Made by a program: the position numbers and the translations under genes. This document shows positions 23,195-29,542 of a DNA stretch of 64,000 nt, piece after piece. The DNA comes from a phage. The stretch lies in the sequence record PZ445432.1; one strand, given 5' to 3'. The notes beneath the pieces are model-generated. The model saw only the letters and a program-made list of their open reading frames with translations, did not search any database and was not told where the DNA came from. Position 1 is the stretch's first letter. Each line of letters opens with the position of its first letter.

Positions 23195-24016
23195 ATGGGT
23201 AAATTACAAAAACAAATACTACCATATATAGATTATATCCGAGAAATTATAGAGTATAATCCCTATACTGGTAAATTATTCTATAAGCCTAATAAATATA
23301 AGAATAAAACTTGGCATACTTTATATGCTGGGAGAGAAATATGTAGTAAGAACTCTGATGGGTACATCAGAGTTAGTTTGCTCTTAGATAATAAACCCAC
23401 AATTATTTATGGACACCGAATAGCGTGGCTCCTTCACTATGGGGAGGAACCACCTGCTATGATTGATCATATAAATACTATACCGTGGGATAATAGAATT
23501 ATTAACCTAAGAGAGACAAATTTTAAGTTAAACAGACTTAATACTAACAAAACGGTAGGTGTAGAGCTGCTGCCAGAAGGATTTGTGTACAGCATTACAT
23601 TAGGTGAAAAGTTTTTTGTATCCCCCGGCTTCCCCACTTTCGAACAAGCTAAAGTGGAAAGAGAAAAACTAGTAAATGGTTTATGTAATGCAGAAATTGG
23701 GAAGCAGACCAATATTCTAATAGACGATGTTAGAGATTTACCTGAAATGTCCATTATTTGTCGTACAGTTATAGGTGCGCTGGAACTATCAGATGTGTTT
23801 AGTTTCACAGGATCCTATTTATTTATGGACTCAGATTTAGGAGATTCAGAGGTACAAGGAAAAGATTTATTAGATCATATACTATTATTAGGTCAAAGAC
23901 CCCTAAAAGTGATTCTAGTAACATCTAATCCTGTTGACGCAGAGTACATGAGAGGTACTCTTACGTCTTATGGATACCGAGAAAATCCCAATAGATTAGA
24001 ATATGATCTATTTTAA
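23195..24016 (+). CDS. HNH homing endonuclease-like protein
   Basis: IDHINTIPWDNRIINLRE HNH signature; N-terminus paralogous to the other HNH ORFs. Confidence 0.65.
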   Translation: MGKLQKQILPYIDYIREIIEYNPYTGKLFYKPNKYKNKTWHTLYAGREICSKNSDGYIRVSLLLDNKPTIIYGHRIAWLLHYGEEPPAMIDHINTIPWDNRIINLRETNFKLNRLNTNKTVGVELLPEGFVYSITLGEKFFVSPGFPTFEQAKVEREKLVNGLCNAEIGKQTNILIDDVRDLPEMSIICRTVIGALELSDVFSFTGSYLFMDSDLGDSEVQGKDLLDHILLLGQRPLKVILVTSNPVDAEYMRGTLTSYGYRENPNRLEYDLF

Positions 24017-24546: not shown

Positions 24547-24717
24547 ATGAAAAACTTGATCGTCATTGGTGTTAACACTCGCGGTATTCGTACTACGAAA
24601 ACTGTTAAAACTTCTAACGTTGCTGAGATCACTACGAACCCTAAAAAGTTTGATTTCGCCAAAGTCTCAGCAGTTATGACAGAACAATCTTTTAACCAAG
24701 CGTTAGGAATGAAATAA
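24547..24717 (+). CDS. small hypothetical protein (56 aa)
   Basis: hand-translated MKNLIVIGVNTRGIRTTKTV...; stop overlaps next start (TAATG); absent from the >=60 aa track. Confidence 0.35.
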   Translation: MKNLIVIGVNTRGIRTTKTVKTSNVAEITTNPKKFDFAKVSAVMTEQSFNQALGMK

Positions 24718-25160
24718 TGGGAGAGAATATTTTAGATGTTTTGCGTAGAGCTTTGCAGGATTCTAAGTTTAATGGTTCTGATAAAGAAGTCGCTAAAAGC
24801 TATCAGACCATAATCGGGGATCTTCAGCGTATTGATAAAGATTTCATCACTTCTGAACAATTTGTGTCTTATCTCAAAGCTCAACTAAAAAGCATTAACC
24901 AGATGAAAGCTAAACTTCATGGTCAAGATCTTGATAGTTATAGCTTGCAGTCCGCTCAGTATGAATACATTCTAAATAAGTGGTTGCAGGAGTATCTGCC
25001 TCCTCAGTTATCTGATACTGAGATTCGTAAATACTTTGCAGAATTAGTTAAGCTAAACCCTGGAATTACAAAAGGTATGCTGATGAAAGCGATTAAGGAA
25101 GAATTTCCTGGGCGTTATGATGGTGGTACTGCTGCTCAGATTGCTGGCGAATTTAATTAA
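24717..25160 (+). CDS. hypothetical protein
   Basis: ORF from track. Confidence 0.5.
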   Translation: MGENILDVLRRALQDSKFNGSDKEVAKSYQTIIGDLQRIDKDFITSEQFVSYLKAQLKSINQMKAKLHGQDLDSYSLQSAQYEYILNKWLQEYLPPQLSDTEIRKYFAELVKLNPGITKGMLMKAIKEEFPGRYDGGTAAQIAGEFN

Positions 25161-25200
25161 AAATTTATTTGCTAAATGCCTATAAATTCTGTATAATATA
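25160..25200 (+). promoter_or_regulatory. conserved early sigma70 promoter driving an ORF-free region
   Basis: aaaatttatttgctaaatgcctataaattctgtataat. Confidence 0.55.
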
Positions 25201-25201
25201 T

Positions 25202-25993
25202 TAATAAATTAGAGAACAGCGGGCCGATTACGCTGAGTGCAGAATCCAAACCGGAGTGCATTGAATAGAGTCGGTGGGTTAGTTGTAAAACTAGTACACA
25301 GTGGGCGGCAATCCCGGTTAGTGGCTAGAACGTGTAAAATGGGGCGTCTGAAACCTCTCCCCTAAACTCTTCTCTAGTTTATAAATAGTGGGGTGTGGAA
25401 ATCACTTATGTAGTAACACTGCCGATCTAGTATAAACGGTATTATCAAGCCGTAACTGGTGGAAGATGTAGGTTCGAATCCTACGATCGGTAAGAACTGG
25501 ATAACTGGTGCTTTTAACGTAAAAGCTTCCGAGGTTAGTTGCGCACTGCCTAAACCACGCGGTAGTTGGTTCCAGACTAACCAACCAGTCTGCTGAATAG
25601 TTTTATTACGATTTAACTATGTCCAGGCTAAAGAAGAACTTTAGAAGGTATTCTAGGTGGTGAAGTTTTTCCTCCATATCGGAGTAGTTTTTCAAGCTAC
25701 CAACAAAGTGGGAAATGCTGACATGAGAGATGTCACTAATGGTGCACAATAGCACAGGTAATTCGCGATAACTCCTGTTGAGTAGCAGCAAAAGGCGGGA
25801 AGTCATGACCCCAAGCCTAACCGAGTCCTCAATATACCGCAGGACATAACCACTAAGTCACCCTGACTTAAACTGGAAAATAATAGACGTTACTGTATTT
25901 TGTCTTGAAATACTTAATGAGTGAGACTTATGACTCTCCCGGTATCGTCTGTATTTTTAAGAGTTTTTACGAGAGTTCTTAAAAATACTTAAA
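25202..25993 (+). ncRNA. candidate non-coding RNA region (ORF-free, promoter-driven)
   Basis: ~800 nt downstream of a consensus promoter with no plausible plus-strand ORF; contains hairpins and one tRNA-like element. Confidence 0.3.
25421..25492 (+). other. tRNA-like element (canonical T-arm and acceptor pairing, other arms unresolved)
   Basis: gtaggttcgaatcctac T-arm; gccgatc/gatcggt acceptor; D and anticodon arms did not fold canonically by hand. Confidence 0.35.
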
Positions 25994-26068
25994 CGGGGTG
26001 TAGTCTAAGGGAGAGGCAGGAGTCTTCTAAATTCCTTTATGCAGGTTCGAATCCTGTCACCTCGGCCA
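25994..26068 (+). tRNA. tRNA-Arg (anticodon UCU)
   Basis: hand-folded cloverleaf: acceptor cggggtg/cacctcg, D stem gtct/aggc, anticodon loop cTTCTaa, T-arm gcaggttcgaatcctgt, encoded CCA. Confidence 0.8.
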
Positions 26069-26102: not shown

Positions 26103-27050
26103 ATGTTTAATACTAAAAATATGAAAGAACTGACTTCTGAGCAAAAAGTAATTCGCACTATTAAACGTTGGGGTATTGGTTCTGTAGTTGGTTTAGCAGG
26201 TTTAATCCTAGCTTTTAATTCATATACTATTGTTTCTGATGGTACAGTTAAAACCCAAACATTTCTGGGTAAAGTAGATCCTAACCCAGTATTACCTGGT
26301 TTCCATCTTGTAAACCCATTTGCATCTTTCGATACTTTTAGTACAAAAGATATTGCTGTAAAATTAGATAAACTTCAGGTTCCTAGCCAGGATAAGTTTA
26401 AATCCACTGTTGACCTGACTGTTATGTTGCAGTTTGATGGTTCTAAGGCACCGATCAACCGTATTAATGCAGGTACTCAGGATCAGGCGTTAGACAAATA
26501 TGTTACTGAAAAATTACTGTCTACCATCCGTGAGTTTGGTAAGTCTGTACCTAAAGCACAAGATTTGTTTGATGCTAAAATTCAAGCACAATTACAAACT
26601 GCAATTCAACAGGAAGTTGAAGAGTATGCACGCCCTTATGGTTACACAGTTAAGCAAGTGTTCCTTCAGGATATTACATTGCCACCGGTAATTATGGAAC
26701 AGGTACAGAATACCAAAGTTCGTGAAGAACAAGTTAATGCTGCGAAAGCTGAATTGGCTCGTGTTGAACAAGAAGCACAGCAGAAGGTTAAACAAGCAGA
26801 AGCAGATCGTGAAGCTCGTAACAACCAAGCTATTGCAAACGAACGTGATGCAGATGCTAAACTGTATGCAGCTAAGAAAGAAGCCGAAGCTAACGCCGCT
26901 CTGCAACGTACTATTACTCCTGAGATGATTCGCTGGAAACAACTAGAAGTTGAAATGACTCGTGCTCAGAAGTATCAAGGTGGTGTGCCTCAGACTGTAG
27001 TAGGTACTGGTTACGATGGTCAAATGATCATGGATATGCGTAACAAGTAA
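26103..27050 (+). CDS. SPFH (band-7 / HflK/C-like) domain membrane protein
   Basis: N-terminal TM segment, SPFH-like core, C-terminal coiled-coil QEAQQKVKQAEADREARN. Confidence 0.65.
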   Translation: MFNTKNMKELTSEQKVIRTIKRWGIGSVVGLAGLILAFNSYTIVSDGTVKTQTFLGKVDPNPVLPGFHLVNPFASFDTFSTKDIAVKLDKLQVPSQDKFKSTVDLTVMLQFDGSKAPINRINAGTQDQALDKYVTEKLLSTIREFGKSVPKAQDLFDAKIQAQLQTAIQQEVEEYARPYGYTVKQVFLQDITLPPVIMEQVQNTKVREEQVNAAKAELARVEQEAQQKVKQAEADREARNNQAIANERDADAKLYAAKKEAEANAALQRTITPEMIRWKQLEVEMTRAQKYQGGVPQTVVGTGYDGQMIMDMRNK

Positions 27051-27073
27051 TAGTTACACGTAATCTTCGAAGT

Positions 27074-27114
27074 AAGCCCTGTGTTCCCTGGAGAGCGCAG
27101 GGCTTTTCTGTTTT
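27074..27114 (+). terminator. rho-independent terminator
   Basis: aagccctg...cagggctt hairpin followed by ttctgtttt. Confidence 0.65.
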
Positions 27115-27971: not shown

Positions 27972-28049
27972 GGTTCTCAAGCTCATATGGTATGAGCACC
28001 CAGCTCATAACTGGAAGGTACGTAGGTTCGAATCCTCGGGGAGCCACCA
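27972..28049 (+). tRNA. tRNA with CAU anticodon (Met or Ile2)
   Basis: anticodon loop ctCATaa; D stem gctc/gagc; acceptor ggttctc/gggagcc with G-U pairs; T stem imperfect; CCA. Confidence 0.6.
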
Positions 28050-28552: not shown

Positions 28553-28627
28553 TGGGGGTGTAATCGAATTGGCATAGGTACTGTACTTAAAATTCAGGTT
28601 TTGTGGGTTCGAATCCCAGCGAGGCGT
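28553..28627 (+). other. tRNA-like element (unresolved fold)
   Basis: gtgggttcgaatcccag T-arm; no canonical acceptor partner found by hand. Confidence 0.3.
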
Positions 28628-29004: not shown

Positions 29005-29099
29005 CAATTTATATGGTAGGTCAATCCAACGGCTGGCGCTGGACTCCGACTTGAAATCGGTTGATCGTAGTGATACGGTGTAAGGGTTCGATCCCCTTA
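29005..29099 (+). tRNA. tRNA-Ser (anticodon UGA), type II
   Basis: acceptor ggtaggt/acctacc, anticodon loop cTTGAaa, long variable arm, T-arm aagggttcgatcccctt, CCA. Confidence 0.75.
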
Positions 29100-29465
29100 C
29101 CTACCTCCAAATCTTGAAGTATGCCGGAATCGGTAGACGGGGCTGCCTAAAAGGTTTATAGGGAACATCCACTCCCTGCAACATACCTCATAAAGCGGCT
29201 GAGATAAATGGTCTATCTCGTGAAGGTTCAAGTCCTTCTGCTTCTTGATACATCTATGGCTCAAAGTGTAACGGTGCTATTTGATGCTCTTGGTAAGACT
29301 TCCCCGACATGCGTTCGGGAGTAAGCTGCTAAGACTAGAGTAGAAGAGTTTCTGAGAGCCGCCACAATTGAAAATTCGTACTCGTCTTGAGCTGCGTGCA
29401 ATAGGAGATAACTTGATTAGTATTCTAGAACATGCTAATTGAGGATGGTTTCGCTAACCCTGCGA
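29100..29465 (+). ncRNA. candidate structured RNA region including a tRNA-like T-arm (29212-29228)
   Basis: ORF-free 365 nt between tRNAs; gaaggttcaagtccttc T-arm-like hairpin; 13-bp inverted repeat ccacaattgaaaa/ttttcaattgtgg (29353-29365 and 29457-29469). Confidence 0.3.
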
Positions 29466-29542
29466 GTTTTCAATTGTGGCTATATCATAATTGGTTAATG
29501 ATCCTGATTGTGAATCAGGCCTATGTGGATTCGAATTCCACT
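29466..29542 (+). tRNA. tRNA-His (anticodon GUG)
   Basis: acceptor gtggcta/tagccac, D stem tcat/atga, anticodon arm cctga-ttGTGaa-tcagg, T-arm gtggattcgaattccac, CCA. Confidence 0.8.

Follow-up and report, generated by a model that had tools for sequence, protein, structure and literature searches.

The rnaX Locus

The DNA analyzed here is a stretch of 64,000 nucleotides (nt) from a phage (sequence record PZ445432.1; the window in the following), and the subject of the analysis is a region of approximately 800 nt in its tRNA gene region that lies on the early strand between promoter P16-17 and the gene for tRNA-Arg(UCU). The sequence of this region matches Escherichia phage HildyBeyeler (MZ501074, Tequintavirus) with 100% identity. 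In the corresponding part of the T5 record (AY543070), 'promoter P16-17' is followed by a misc_RNA feature, rnaX, of 719 nt, which abuts tRNA-Arg and is described as 'RNAX, stable RNA with unknown functions'. The rnaX gene is also annotated in DT571/2 (636 nt), BF23 (NC_042564, 784 nt), DT57C and Salmonella phage 5 (AJ604531). The T5 RNAX aligns with the window at 92.6% identity over 515 nt (25365-25878) and at 98.6% over 138 nt (25856-25993), and the BF23 locus is collinear with the whole HildyBeyeler region, 5' domain included, at 96% identity. By position and sequence homology, the HildyBeyeler region is identified as the ortholog of the rnaX genes of the T5 group, and comparison across the family indicates that it encodes a modular, structured non-coding RNA. 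The locus consists of the following features.

25169-25197, + strand: sigma-70 early promoter, with -35 TTGCTA (25169-25174), a 17-bp spacer and -10 TATAAT (25192-25197)
25204-25993, + strand: RNAX transcript body (rnaX ortholog), from the predicted start to the base before tRNA-Arg, by T5 alignment and BF23 collinearity
25994-26068, + strand: tRNA-Arg(UCU), predicted to be co-transcribed; tRNA detection, Rfam and GenBank
26103-27105, + strand: rest of the predicted transcription unit, namely the SPFH/Band-7 membrane protein gene (26103-27050) and a terminator-like site (27074-27105), the first downstream of the rnaX promoter

The promoter matches the consensus at 10 of 12 positions. The scan found 12 such matches against 12.7 expected in shuffled sequence, so the match alone proves nothing; the site is kept in every relative that retains the 5' end, and is annotated as 'promoter P16-17' in both T5 and BF23. 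Transcription is predicted to start at approximately 25204, from the spacing and the 75-nt promoter feature of T5. Thus, the early promoter and the extent of the region up to tRNA-Arg that a preliminary description of this DNA had proposed both hold. The G+C content is 41-46% across the rnaX region compared to 33-39% in its flanks.

Coding Potential

The HildyBeyeler record carries no rnaX feature and instead contains, ahead of tRNA-Arg, three hypothetical coding sequences (CDSs; bas33_0080 to bas33_0082), which are given here as in GenBank.

25237-25365, + strand: hypothetical CDS
25459-25596, + strand: hypothetical CDS
25606-25806, - strand: hypothetical CDS

The longest plus-strand open reading frames (ORFs) within approximately 25204-25993 comprise 42 and 45 amino acids (aa). 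Five candidate ORFs were translated through a 20-genome alignment, and all five are hit by stops or frameshifts in relatives. The ORF at 25237-25365 is intact in HildyBeyeler and BF23 only, contains many stops in LVR16A (88% identical DNA) and is absent from T5, and the minus-strand ORF at 25606-25806 is frameshifted in T5, DT571/2, SP01, BF23 and LVR16A. The ORFs at 25459-25596 (+) and 25402-25584 (-) are intact only at 96-99% DNA identity; Wa28, SB13, KKP_3711 and the Klebsiella phages have broken versions. The fifth ORF, at 25657-25752 (+), is intact in HildyBeyeler, Wa28, Eps7 and Sds2, is interrupted by a frameshift or stop in DT571/2, SP01, BF23 and others, and has no start codon in T5. 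A Pfam search of the five ORFs returned no matches. The three hypothetical CDSs inside rnaX are probably spurious. The preliminary description had seen a promoter-driven stretch of about 800 nt with no convincing plus-strand ORF, had doubted the two minus-strand ORFs (25402-25584 and 25606-25806), and had regarded a conserved frame on either strand as incompatible with its proposal; the two ORFs exist and both are broken in relatives, and no frame conserved on either strand was found in the 20-genome alignment.

Comparative Evidence for a Folded RNA

The fold predicted from the alignments is a chain of independently closed domains, namely an optional 5' domain, a tRNA-like module, a variable center and a universal 3' domain, with the following elements.

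25206-25380, + strand: optional 5' domain closed by helix P1 (25206-16 / 25370-80)
25217-21 / 25231-35, + strand: hairpin P2a; pseudoknot P2b can form between its loop (25223-29) and 25269-75
~25346-25361, + strand: G[G/A/U]GG...CC[U/A]C hairpin of the 5' domain, which also contains a variable hairpin, P3
25384-25420, + strand: conserved linker AUAGUGGGGUG...ACUUAUGU..AACACU with hairpin Ba (25395-97 / 25403-05); invariant columns
25421-25492, + strand: tRNA-like element; acceptor stem, D arm and T arm (TTCGAAT loop) kept, anticodon arm of 4 bp with a 6-nt loop, no encoded CCA
25493-25526, + strand: linker AAGAACUGGAUAACU and hairpin Bc (25510-15 / 25521-26); covariation
25527-25706, + strand: variable central domain with hairpins GUUGGUU/AACCAAC, AUAGUU/AACUAU and CUCC/GGAG
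25707-25784, + strand: AAGUGGGAAA motif, hairpin Ha (25720-24 / 25730-34), hairpins at ~25742-25777 and a GAUAAC loop
25793-25818, + strand: hairpin Hd; 6 of 8 pairs covary (two helix segments)
25825-25853, + strand: hairpin He (25825-29 / 25841-45), 5 of 5 pairs covarying, then conserved AUAACCAC
25856-25878, + strand: AGUCACCYUGACU, which could form hairpin Hf or pair with the Hd loop, and UAAACUGGAA; invariant, once in the window
25885-25950, + strand: three-way junction of Hg (25885-93 / 25942-50), Hh (25895-900 / 25908-13), CUUAAU and Hi (25923-27 / 25932-36)
25951-25988, + strand: hp3, a 17-bp hairpin with a UACG loop; 5 pairs covary; 5 nt before tRNA-Arg, once in the window

The strongest evidence for this structure comes from the 3' domain (25785-25989), for which eight helices (Hd in two segments, He, Hf, Hg/Hh/Hi and hp3) were drawn by hand on the HildyBeyeler sequence, and a covariance model built from ten close relatives was used to align 29 distinct homologs. 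The realignment was necessary because plain MAFFT misaligned the variable helices; on the plain alignment, RNAalifold recovered only hp3 and an invariant long-range pairing. In the model-fitted alignment, 96% of the cells are paired (37-49% in slid controls), and 31 of the 53 pairs show changes on both sides (5-9 in slid controls), values reached in 0 of 500 shuffles; given that the sequences are related, the shuffle count is not a probability, and the number of double-change pairs is the more robust figure. For the tRNA-like module with its flanks (25384-25536), 19 sequences were aligned with plain MAFFT, independently of any structure, and here 9 of the 29 pairs are double-changed, compared to 0-1 in slid controls. 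Whole helices are replaced at fixed positions between conserved anchors.

The alignments also identify the molecule on which the structure is selected. Cells with G-U pairs outnumber those with A-C by 117 to 19 and by 52 to 2, and with the minus strand taken as the RNA, the paired fraction would decrease from 96% to 89% in the first case and from 89% to 80% in the second. The excess of G-U over A-C therefore points to a structure selected on the plus-strand RNA rather than on the DNA or an antisense transcript. These results bear out the proposal of the preliminary description that the early promoter drives one or more structured non-coding RNAs in which a comparative alignment would reveal compensatory changes. 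Its other suggestion, a covariance-model search of Rfam, was productive in part, in that the tRNA model matches the tRNA-like element whereas no other family matches the region: searches of 9 kb and of three divergent loci (E <= 1) and of the region itself (E <= 10) returned only tRNA, with no GOLLD, ROOL, ribozyme or intron. The remaining weak matches (plastid untranslated regions, microRNAs) are clearly spurious.

Two stretches of 15-17 nt show 82-87% complementarity to the D-arm/anticodon-stem region of tRNA-Arg (25354-25368 vs 26002-26016, and 25924-25940 vs 26009-26025). This complementarity is probably due to chance or lineage-specific, and was discounted because other versions of RNAX carry different sequence at these positions.

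The tRNA-Like Element

The tRNA-like element, which the preliminary description had noticed at 25421-25492, is present and matches the Rfam tRNA model (RF00005) at 39 bits (gathering score 29) with the anticodon arm skipped and 18 nt unaligned. ARAGORN reports an irregular 'Ser(act)' with the anticodon at position 36. The 5-bp anticodon stem with a 7-nt loop presenting an anticodon that is typical of a tRNA is missing. Across the family, all versions contain an acceptor-type stem and a T arm, most contain a D arm, and none has a standard anticodon arm, which in phages other than HildyBeyeler is replaced by long hairpins or by hairpins with loops of 4-6 nt. In the Klebsiella-type version, this arm is a long covarying hairpin (GGGGA/UCCCC vs GGAGAU/AUCUCC); in phiR2-01 and DU_PP_V, its position is taken by a hairpin with a 5- or 4-nt loop; and in Eps7 the whole element is shrunk to a stem and one hairpin. 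The acceptor and T arms both covary. The acceptor stem starts with G1-U72 or G1-A72 and, in most versions, includes a U-U mismatch at pair 5-68 (unpaired in 12 of the 19 sequences), where pairing is restored as A-U in HildyBeyeler and U-A in BF23. The T arms of the element and of the neighboring tRNA-Arg are nearly identical, which suggests descent of the element from a tRNA gene. The retention of the other arms without a normal anticodon arm implies selection on the tRNA shape rather than on decoding, of which a module lacking this arm is incapable. In other T5-like records, the element is variously labeled tRNA-OTHER, tRNA-Ser, tRNA-Sec or pseudo-tRNA.

On the two sides of the element, hairpin Ba shows a G-C to C-G swap and Bc covaries (GCUUUU/AAAAGC, GCUUAU/AUAAGC, GGUUC/GAACC).

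The 3' Domain

The 8-nt palindrome GUCAUGAC in the loop of Hd (25802-25809) is invariant in all aligned homologs, the Pectobacterium phage included. RNAalifold pairs AGUCA..UGACU with the Hd loop, and the palindrome could pair either with this motif or with a second molecule; the alternative hairpin, Hf, is likewise invariant and thus shows no covariation. In the Hg/Hh/Hi junction, 15 of the 18 pairs covary, and the same topology is found in four unrelated sequence versions.

The hairpin hp3 is the most conserved part of the family at the sequence level, with 93-100% identity over 38-42 nt even in phages in which the rest of the region gives no blastn alignment, again including the Pectobacterium phage. 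It is not an intrinsic terminator, since its A/U-rich stem is followed by UUAAAC, with no U-run, and it was not reported by the terminator scan. A ribosome-binding site lies 8-12 nt downstream of hp3 in the Klebsiella phages as well as in ende, PRF-SP12 and KKP_3711. The motifs GAUAAC / UAACUGG, AGUGGG and AACCAC recur several times in RNAX.

The 5' and Central Domains

In the 5' domain, the inverted repeat of P1 extends to 25199-25219 / 25367-25387, and P1, P2a and P2b together are 97% paired (36-47% in slid controls). P1 covaries in AKFV33, phiR2-01 and DU_PP_V, and P3 is wholly different between lineages. Variants read by eye include GAGAG/CUUCUC in T5 and GAUG/CAUC in AKFV33 for P1, CAGCG/CGCUG in HildyBeyeler and CAGCA/UGCUG in DU_PP_V for P2a, and GCCGA/UCGGU in HildyBeyeler and GCAGA/UCUGU in DU_PP_V for P2b.

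The hairpins listed above for the central domain are RNAalifold predictions within Tequintavirus, and the domain is swapped for unrelated sequence in Epseptimavirus and Klebsiella phages. The stem-loop cagact...agtctg that the preliminary description had singled out here does exist, one base away from the position given there (CAGACT/AGTCTG, 25573-78 / 25587-92), and can form in HildyBeyeler. However, it overlaps and competes with the hairpin GUUGGUU/AACCAAC (25565-71 / 25579-85), and the latter is the conserved one: SB13 and KKP_3711 keep it with a compensatory change (GUUGAUU/AAUCAAC) and lack AGUCUG, which within Tequintavirus is paired by RNAalifold with a downstream CAGGCU instead. Further downstream, Ha occurs as GACAU/AUGUC, GGCAU/AUGCC and UCACG/CGUGA, with 3 covarying pairs, and SB13 and KKP_3711 have AGGAAG/CUUCCU and UAGUG/CACUA in place of an ACAGG/CCUGU helix.

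Distribution and Mosaic Evolution of rnaX

Homologs of rnaX were detected by blastn in ~525 of 50,697 phage records. All the loci that were fetched come from Demerecviridae (Tequintavirus, Epseptimavirus, Sugarlandvirus, Yersinia phage phiR2-01 and Enterobacter phage KKP_3711); a few homologs come from records in which the host is given as, for example, Campylobacter or Listeria. From the promoter to the conserved 3' hairpin, family members range from 642 to ~1,290 nt, as follows.

DT571/2: 642 nt
T5: 725 nt
HildyBeyeler: 789 nt
Eps7 group: ~1,010-1,090 nt
SB13: 1,209 nt
Klebsiella phages: 1,247-1,294 nt

The alignments consist of conserved anchors (AUAGUGGGGUG, the tRNA-like core, GAUAACU, UAAACCAC, AAGUGGGA, GGAGUCAUGACC, AUAACCAC, AGUCACCYUGACU-UAAACUGGAA, CUUAAU and the 3' hairpin) separated by segments that are wholly different among lineages. 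T5 and DT571/2 have a deletion of the 5' domain (25217-25369) and retain P1 as a plain hairpin. In mar003J3, P1 and the 5' domain are replaced by an HNH endonuclease gene (Pfam HNH_3; locus L008, 417-899), and PRF-SP12 contains, at the same position, a CDS of the same size that is a putative counterpart of this gene (locus L007, 428-907). Conversely, an extra domain of 170-250 nt is inserted in Eps7, ende, SB13 and the Klebsiella phages, and its closing helix covaries (CGAUGG/CCAUCG vs UGGUGG/CCACCA). Versions of the domains also reassort, as in the metagenomic locus L109, which combines a HildyBeyeler-like backbone with a tRNA-like element of the Klebsiella type. Judging from these sequences, rnaX represents an insertion hotspot for genes.

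Other insertions and ORFs are also seen at the locus. T5 and a metagenomic relative (L094) contain an 87-bp insertion in the 3' domain, with a hairpin of its own in the inserted part; in T5, it is flanked by 23-nt direct repeats, AGTCACCTTGAC(T/A)TAAACTGGAA (locus L002, 1988-2010 and 2075-2097), and its sequence suggests a duplication, or else a small mobile insertion, at the motif that is most conserved. In several Epseptimavirus-like phages, an ORF of 160-170 aa without a Pfam match is located between the 3' hairpin and tRNA-Arg (for example, L006, 1626-2135, in ende and L044, 1724-2200, in KKP_3711).

The family extends to another subfamily. Pectobacterium phage DU_PP_V (Mccorquodalevirinae) shows the same order of promoter, ~1 kb without a CDS, pseudo-tRNA, GGAGUCAUGACC, 3' hairpin and tRNA-Arg, and the 3'-domain model (R1) matches it at 45.5 bits (E = 9e-13). 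Among 5,426 complete E. coli genomes, none yielded an rnaX homolog. When one genome per bacterial species was scanned for the pattern, there were only four hits, all in unrelated metagenome-assembled genomes, which were judged to be chance matches, and only ~12 of the loci returned by a metagenome scan contain other RNAX motifs. We also observe exact copies of AGTCACCTTGACTnnAACTGG, without other RNAX motifs, in four sequence contexts on AT-rich contigs of one metagenome study, two of them ~100 kb long (L051/L118 on the 97-kb contig Ga0256843_1000051, L063, L087/L057 and L120). In L051, where the 3'-domain model scores 25.8 bits (E ~1e-5), the motif and the end of a 74-aa ORF overlap, with a terminator-like hairpin downstream, and in L063 the motif follows an HNH-like ORF; judging by these contexts, AGTCACCTTGACTnnAACTGG may be a portable hairpin or recognition motif.

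Neighboring Genes and RNAs

The gene immediately 5' of the rnaX promoter (24717-25160) shows a weak, sub-threshold match to the YqeY domain (25.2 bits, cutoff 27) and is named 'recombination-related exonuclease', 'tRNA amidotransferase' or 'YqeY-like' in public records. In the Klebsiella phages that were fetched, a CDS of ~460 nt is instead located directly upstream of the RNA (cell wall hydrolase, according to the KpGranit annotation). Three genes upstream of the promoter, an intein-containing hypothetical protein is annotated in the window (23195-24016).

In T5, seven small 'stable' or tRNA-like RNAs besides RNAX are annotated in the tRNA region. Homologs of three of them are arranged in tandem in the window (29113-29474), directly upstream of tRNA-His (29476).

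29113-29257: RNA1 (tRNA-like), 85% identity
29258-29364: RNAI, 92% identity
29369-29474: RNAIII, 100% identity

Rfam yields three further matches of the tRNA type that ARAGORN missed, at 27972-28046 (38.2 bits), 28559-28621 (23.3) and 29015-29105 (38.3). The first two are tRNA-Met and tRNA-Leu in GenBank, and the third is a below-threshold match to the tRNA-Sec model that is unannotated in the portion of the record examined.

Functional Interpretation and Alternatives

We favor, with moderate confidence, the view that RNAX is a stable structured RNA that is released by tRNA-processing enzymes and serves as a binding platform or decoy. This overall judgment bundles claims of very different strength. 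The identification of the region as rnaX and as a structured non-coding RNA, which follows from the comparison of homologs, can be made with high confidence; the processing scheme appears reasonably likely; the role as a platform or decoy is a tentative prediction.

Under this scenario, the early transcript would run through RNAX, tRNA-Arg and the SPFH gene. RNase P would cut at the 5' end of tRNA-Arg, thereby defining the 3' end of RNAX, and perhaps also at the internal tRNA-like element, and RNAX would be released. The paired 5' end (P1) and the 17-bp hp3 would shield it from decay, which fits the 'stable RNA' annotation. RNAX would then act in trans through the tRNA-shaped module, the invariant loops (GUCAUGAC, GAUAAC / AACUGG / AGUGGG / AACCAC) and hp3, as a binding platform or decoy for tRNA-handling factors of the host or the phage early in infection. 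The strong sequence conservation of hp3, the invariance of GUCAUGAC and the recurrence of the motifs point to specific recognition, beyond mere stability.

Several observations weigh against this interpretation or parts of it. The alignment of the 3' domain was fitted to the structural model, which favors structure, and the covariation in the 5' core (P1, P2a and P2b) is slight, with only 2 pairs in a nearly invariant segment. The folding energy is unremarkable compared to shuffled sequences (z = -1.1 and -1.4) and, being no different from them, was not used as evidence. Every covarying helix is local, with a span below ~180 nt, and the free reassortment of domains between phages, such as the HNH gene in place of P1 and the 5' domain in mar003J3, fits independent units equally well; for these two reasons, a single global fold is no more than a possibility. 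The 'stable RNA' label is taken from GenBank notes.

The same observations are the core of the main rival explanation, which we consider unlikely overall and yet the most credible of the alternatives, namely that the region comprises several small stable RNAs in tandem (5' domain, tRNA-like RNA, center and 3' domain) that are co-transcribed and cut apart, resembling the T5 RNA1-RNAI-RNAIII cluster upstream of tRNA-His. The local covarying helices and the independent deletion, swapping and insertion of domains are as expected under such an arrangement, the seven other small stable or tRNA-like RNAs in the T5 tRNA region, three with homologs at 29113-29474, provide a precedent, and the internal tRNA-like element is a plausible RNase P site. 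However, the annotators of T5, BF23, phage 5 and DT571/2 kept RNAX as one feature of 636-784 nt while splitting the other small RNAs, and the conserved single-stranded linkers together with AGUGG / CCACU could close larger domains, although both sides of this closure are invariant and thus show no covariation.

The co-transcription of RNAX with the downstream genes, with no terminator before 27074, is also compatible with a cis-acting leader that controls how tRNA-Arg and the SPFH gene, or the ORF found there in other phages, are expressed, processed or stabilized. The position of hp3 just ahead of a ribosome-binding site in several phages, as noted for the 3' domain, and the sequence conservation of this hairpin, which is far above the need of a simple stabilizing hairpin, fit this possibility. 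Nevertheless, a leader is improbable: the RNA is kept while the downstream gene varies (tRNA-Arg, the 160-170-aa ORF or a 327-nt ORF), a length of 640-1,290 nt with many covarying domains is far larger than in known bacterial leaders, and no cis-regulatory family of Rfam matches.

The resemblance of the element to a degraded tRNA with a T arm almost identical to that of tRNA-Arg, the insertion of HNH genes and other ORFs in or beside the region, and the 87-bp insertion of T5 with its 23-nt direct repeats could be taken to suggest a passive spacer or gene graveyard, in which a decayed tRNA gene and remnants of homing endonucleases are transcribed by virtue of location alone. This is very improbable given that more than 40 base pairs stay paired through double substitutions, that motifs are invariant across subfamilies whose remaining sequence is no longer aligned by blastn, and that the altered anticodon arm itself covaries. 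The coding of small proteins, as implied by bas33_0080 to bas33_0082, can effectively be dismissed: ORFs of 42, 45 and 66 aa exist, but each is broken in phages with 88-98% identical DNA or absent, none matches Pfam, and one overlaps the T arm of the tRNA-like element.

Beyond the preferred interpretation of RNAX as a released platform or decoy, a bolder possibility is that it represents a third, unrelated family of giant ornate phage RNAs beside GOLLD and ROOL, with a single fold of 0.65-1.3 kb that would self-associate through GUCAUGAC and other loops and would display or sequester the tRNA-shaped module against tRNA-directed enzymes or defenses of the host. We regard this combination as quite unlikely, if less so than a leader.

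Comparison with Known RNAs and Implications

The existence of rnaX is already known because the gene is annotated in GenBank records of the T5 group. The T5 gene shares with the region described here the promoter P16-17, the position abutting tRNA-Arg(UCU) and 93-99% identity over the common parts, and differs from it by the lack of the ~150-nt 5' domain and by its own 87-nt insertion. In the searchable literature, no description of the structure, family breadth or function of RNAX was found, and there is no Rfam family; thus, the gene is known, and its structure and family are undescribed in that literature.

Large, elaborately folded RNAs of bacteria and phages are rare; the structures of GOLLD and ROOL have been solved, and their hosts are less tractable. 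To our knowledge, neither of the two has a known function. Similarly to GOLLD and ROOL, RNAX is encoded by phages beside tRNA islands and spans several hundred to more than 800 nt. GOLLD comprises a conserved 3' region and a variable 5' region, sometimes with tRNAs within the linker (PMC12286853, PMC5737381), a layout resembling that of RNAX, in which the 3' domain is universal, the 5' and central domains vary and a tRNA-like element is embedded. The symmetric kissing contacts that hold OLE and GOLLD assemblies together are made by palindromic loops (PMC12286853), and RNAX has the invariant palindromic loop GUCAUGAC, which is the single lead toward a homo-oligomeric cage made of RNA only, as in GOLLD and ROOL. 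In contrast, RNAX matches neither the GOLLD nor the ROOL model of Rfam, even at E <= 10, occurs in phages of Enterobacterales, is known here from sequence and predicted local helices alone, and consists of domains that reassort, which has not been described for either family. RNAX resembles these RNAs in setting and style, with no homology, so that by analogy it may work like them, which is not to say that it is one of them.

Processing signals or mimics that resemble tRNAs include the species 1 and 2 RNAs of T4, MALAT1 mascRNA and the bacterial YrlA. As in these cases and in the 'tRNA-like stable RNAs' RNA1, RNA2 and RNA3 of T5, the RNAX element is located within or beside a longer non-coding RNA in a tRNA cluster, and it retains the acceptor, D and T arms but no functional anticodon arm. 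Unlike these elements, that of RNAX has no encoded CCA and a recurrent U-U mismatch in the acceptor stem, and it matches only the general tRNA model of Rfam, in a library whose inclusion of YrlA and the like was not confirmed. The tRNA island of T5 has been linked to the evasion of tRNA-targeting defenses. A lead from this region to 'Rad', an anti-retron factor, was rejected, as Rad is a protein encoded elsewhere.

These observations have consequences for annotation as well as for biology. In hundreds of T5-like genomes, spurious 'hypothetical proteins' or odd tRNAs are annotated across rnaX, and Rfam lacks a family for RNAX. With RNA domains swapped as modules and homing endonucleases inserted around them, this locus is a clear case of mosaic evolution in an RNA gene. 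RNAX, encoded within the tRNA island of T5-family phages, a classic model group infecting E. coli K-12, stands out as a structured RNA of unusual size and modularity that still lacks an explanation. If it is indeed a machine analogous to the large ornate RNAs or a decoy, its function would be directly testable in the tractable T5 / E. coli K-12 system.

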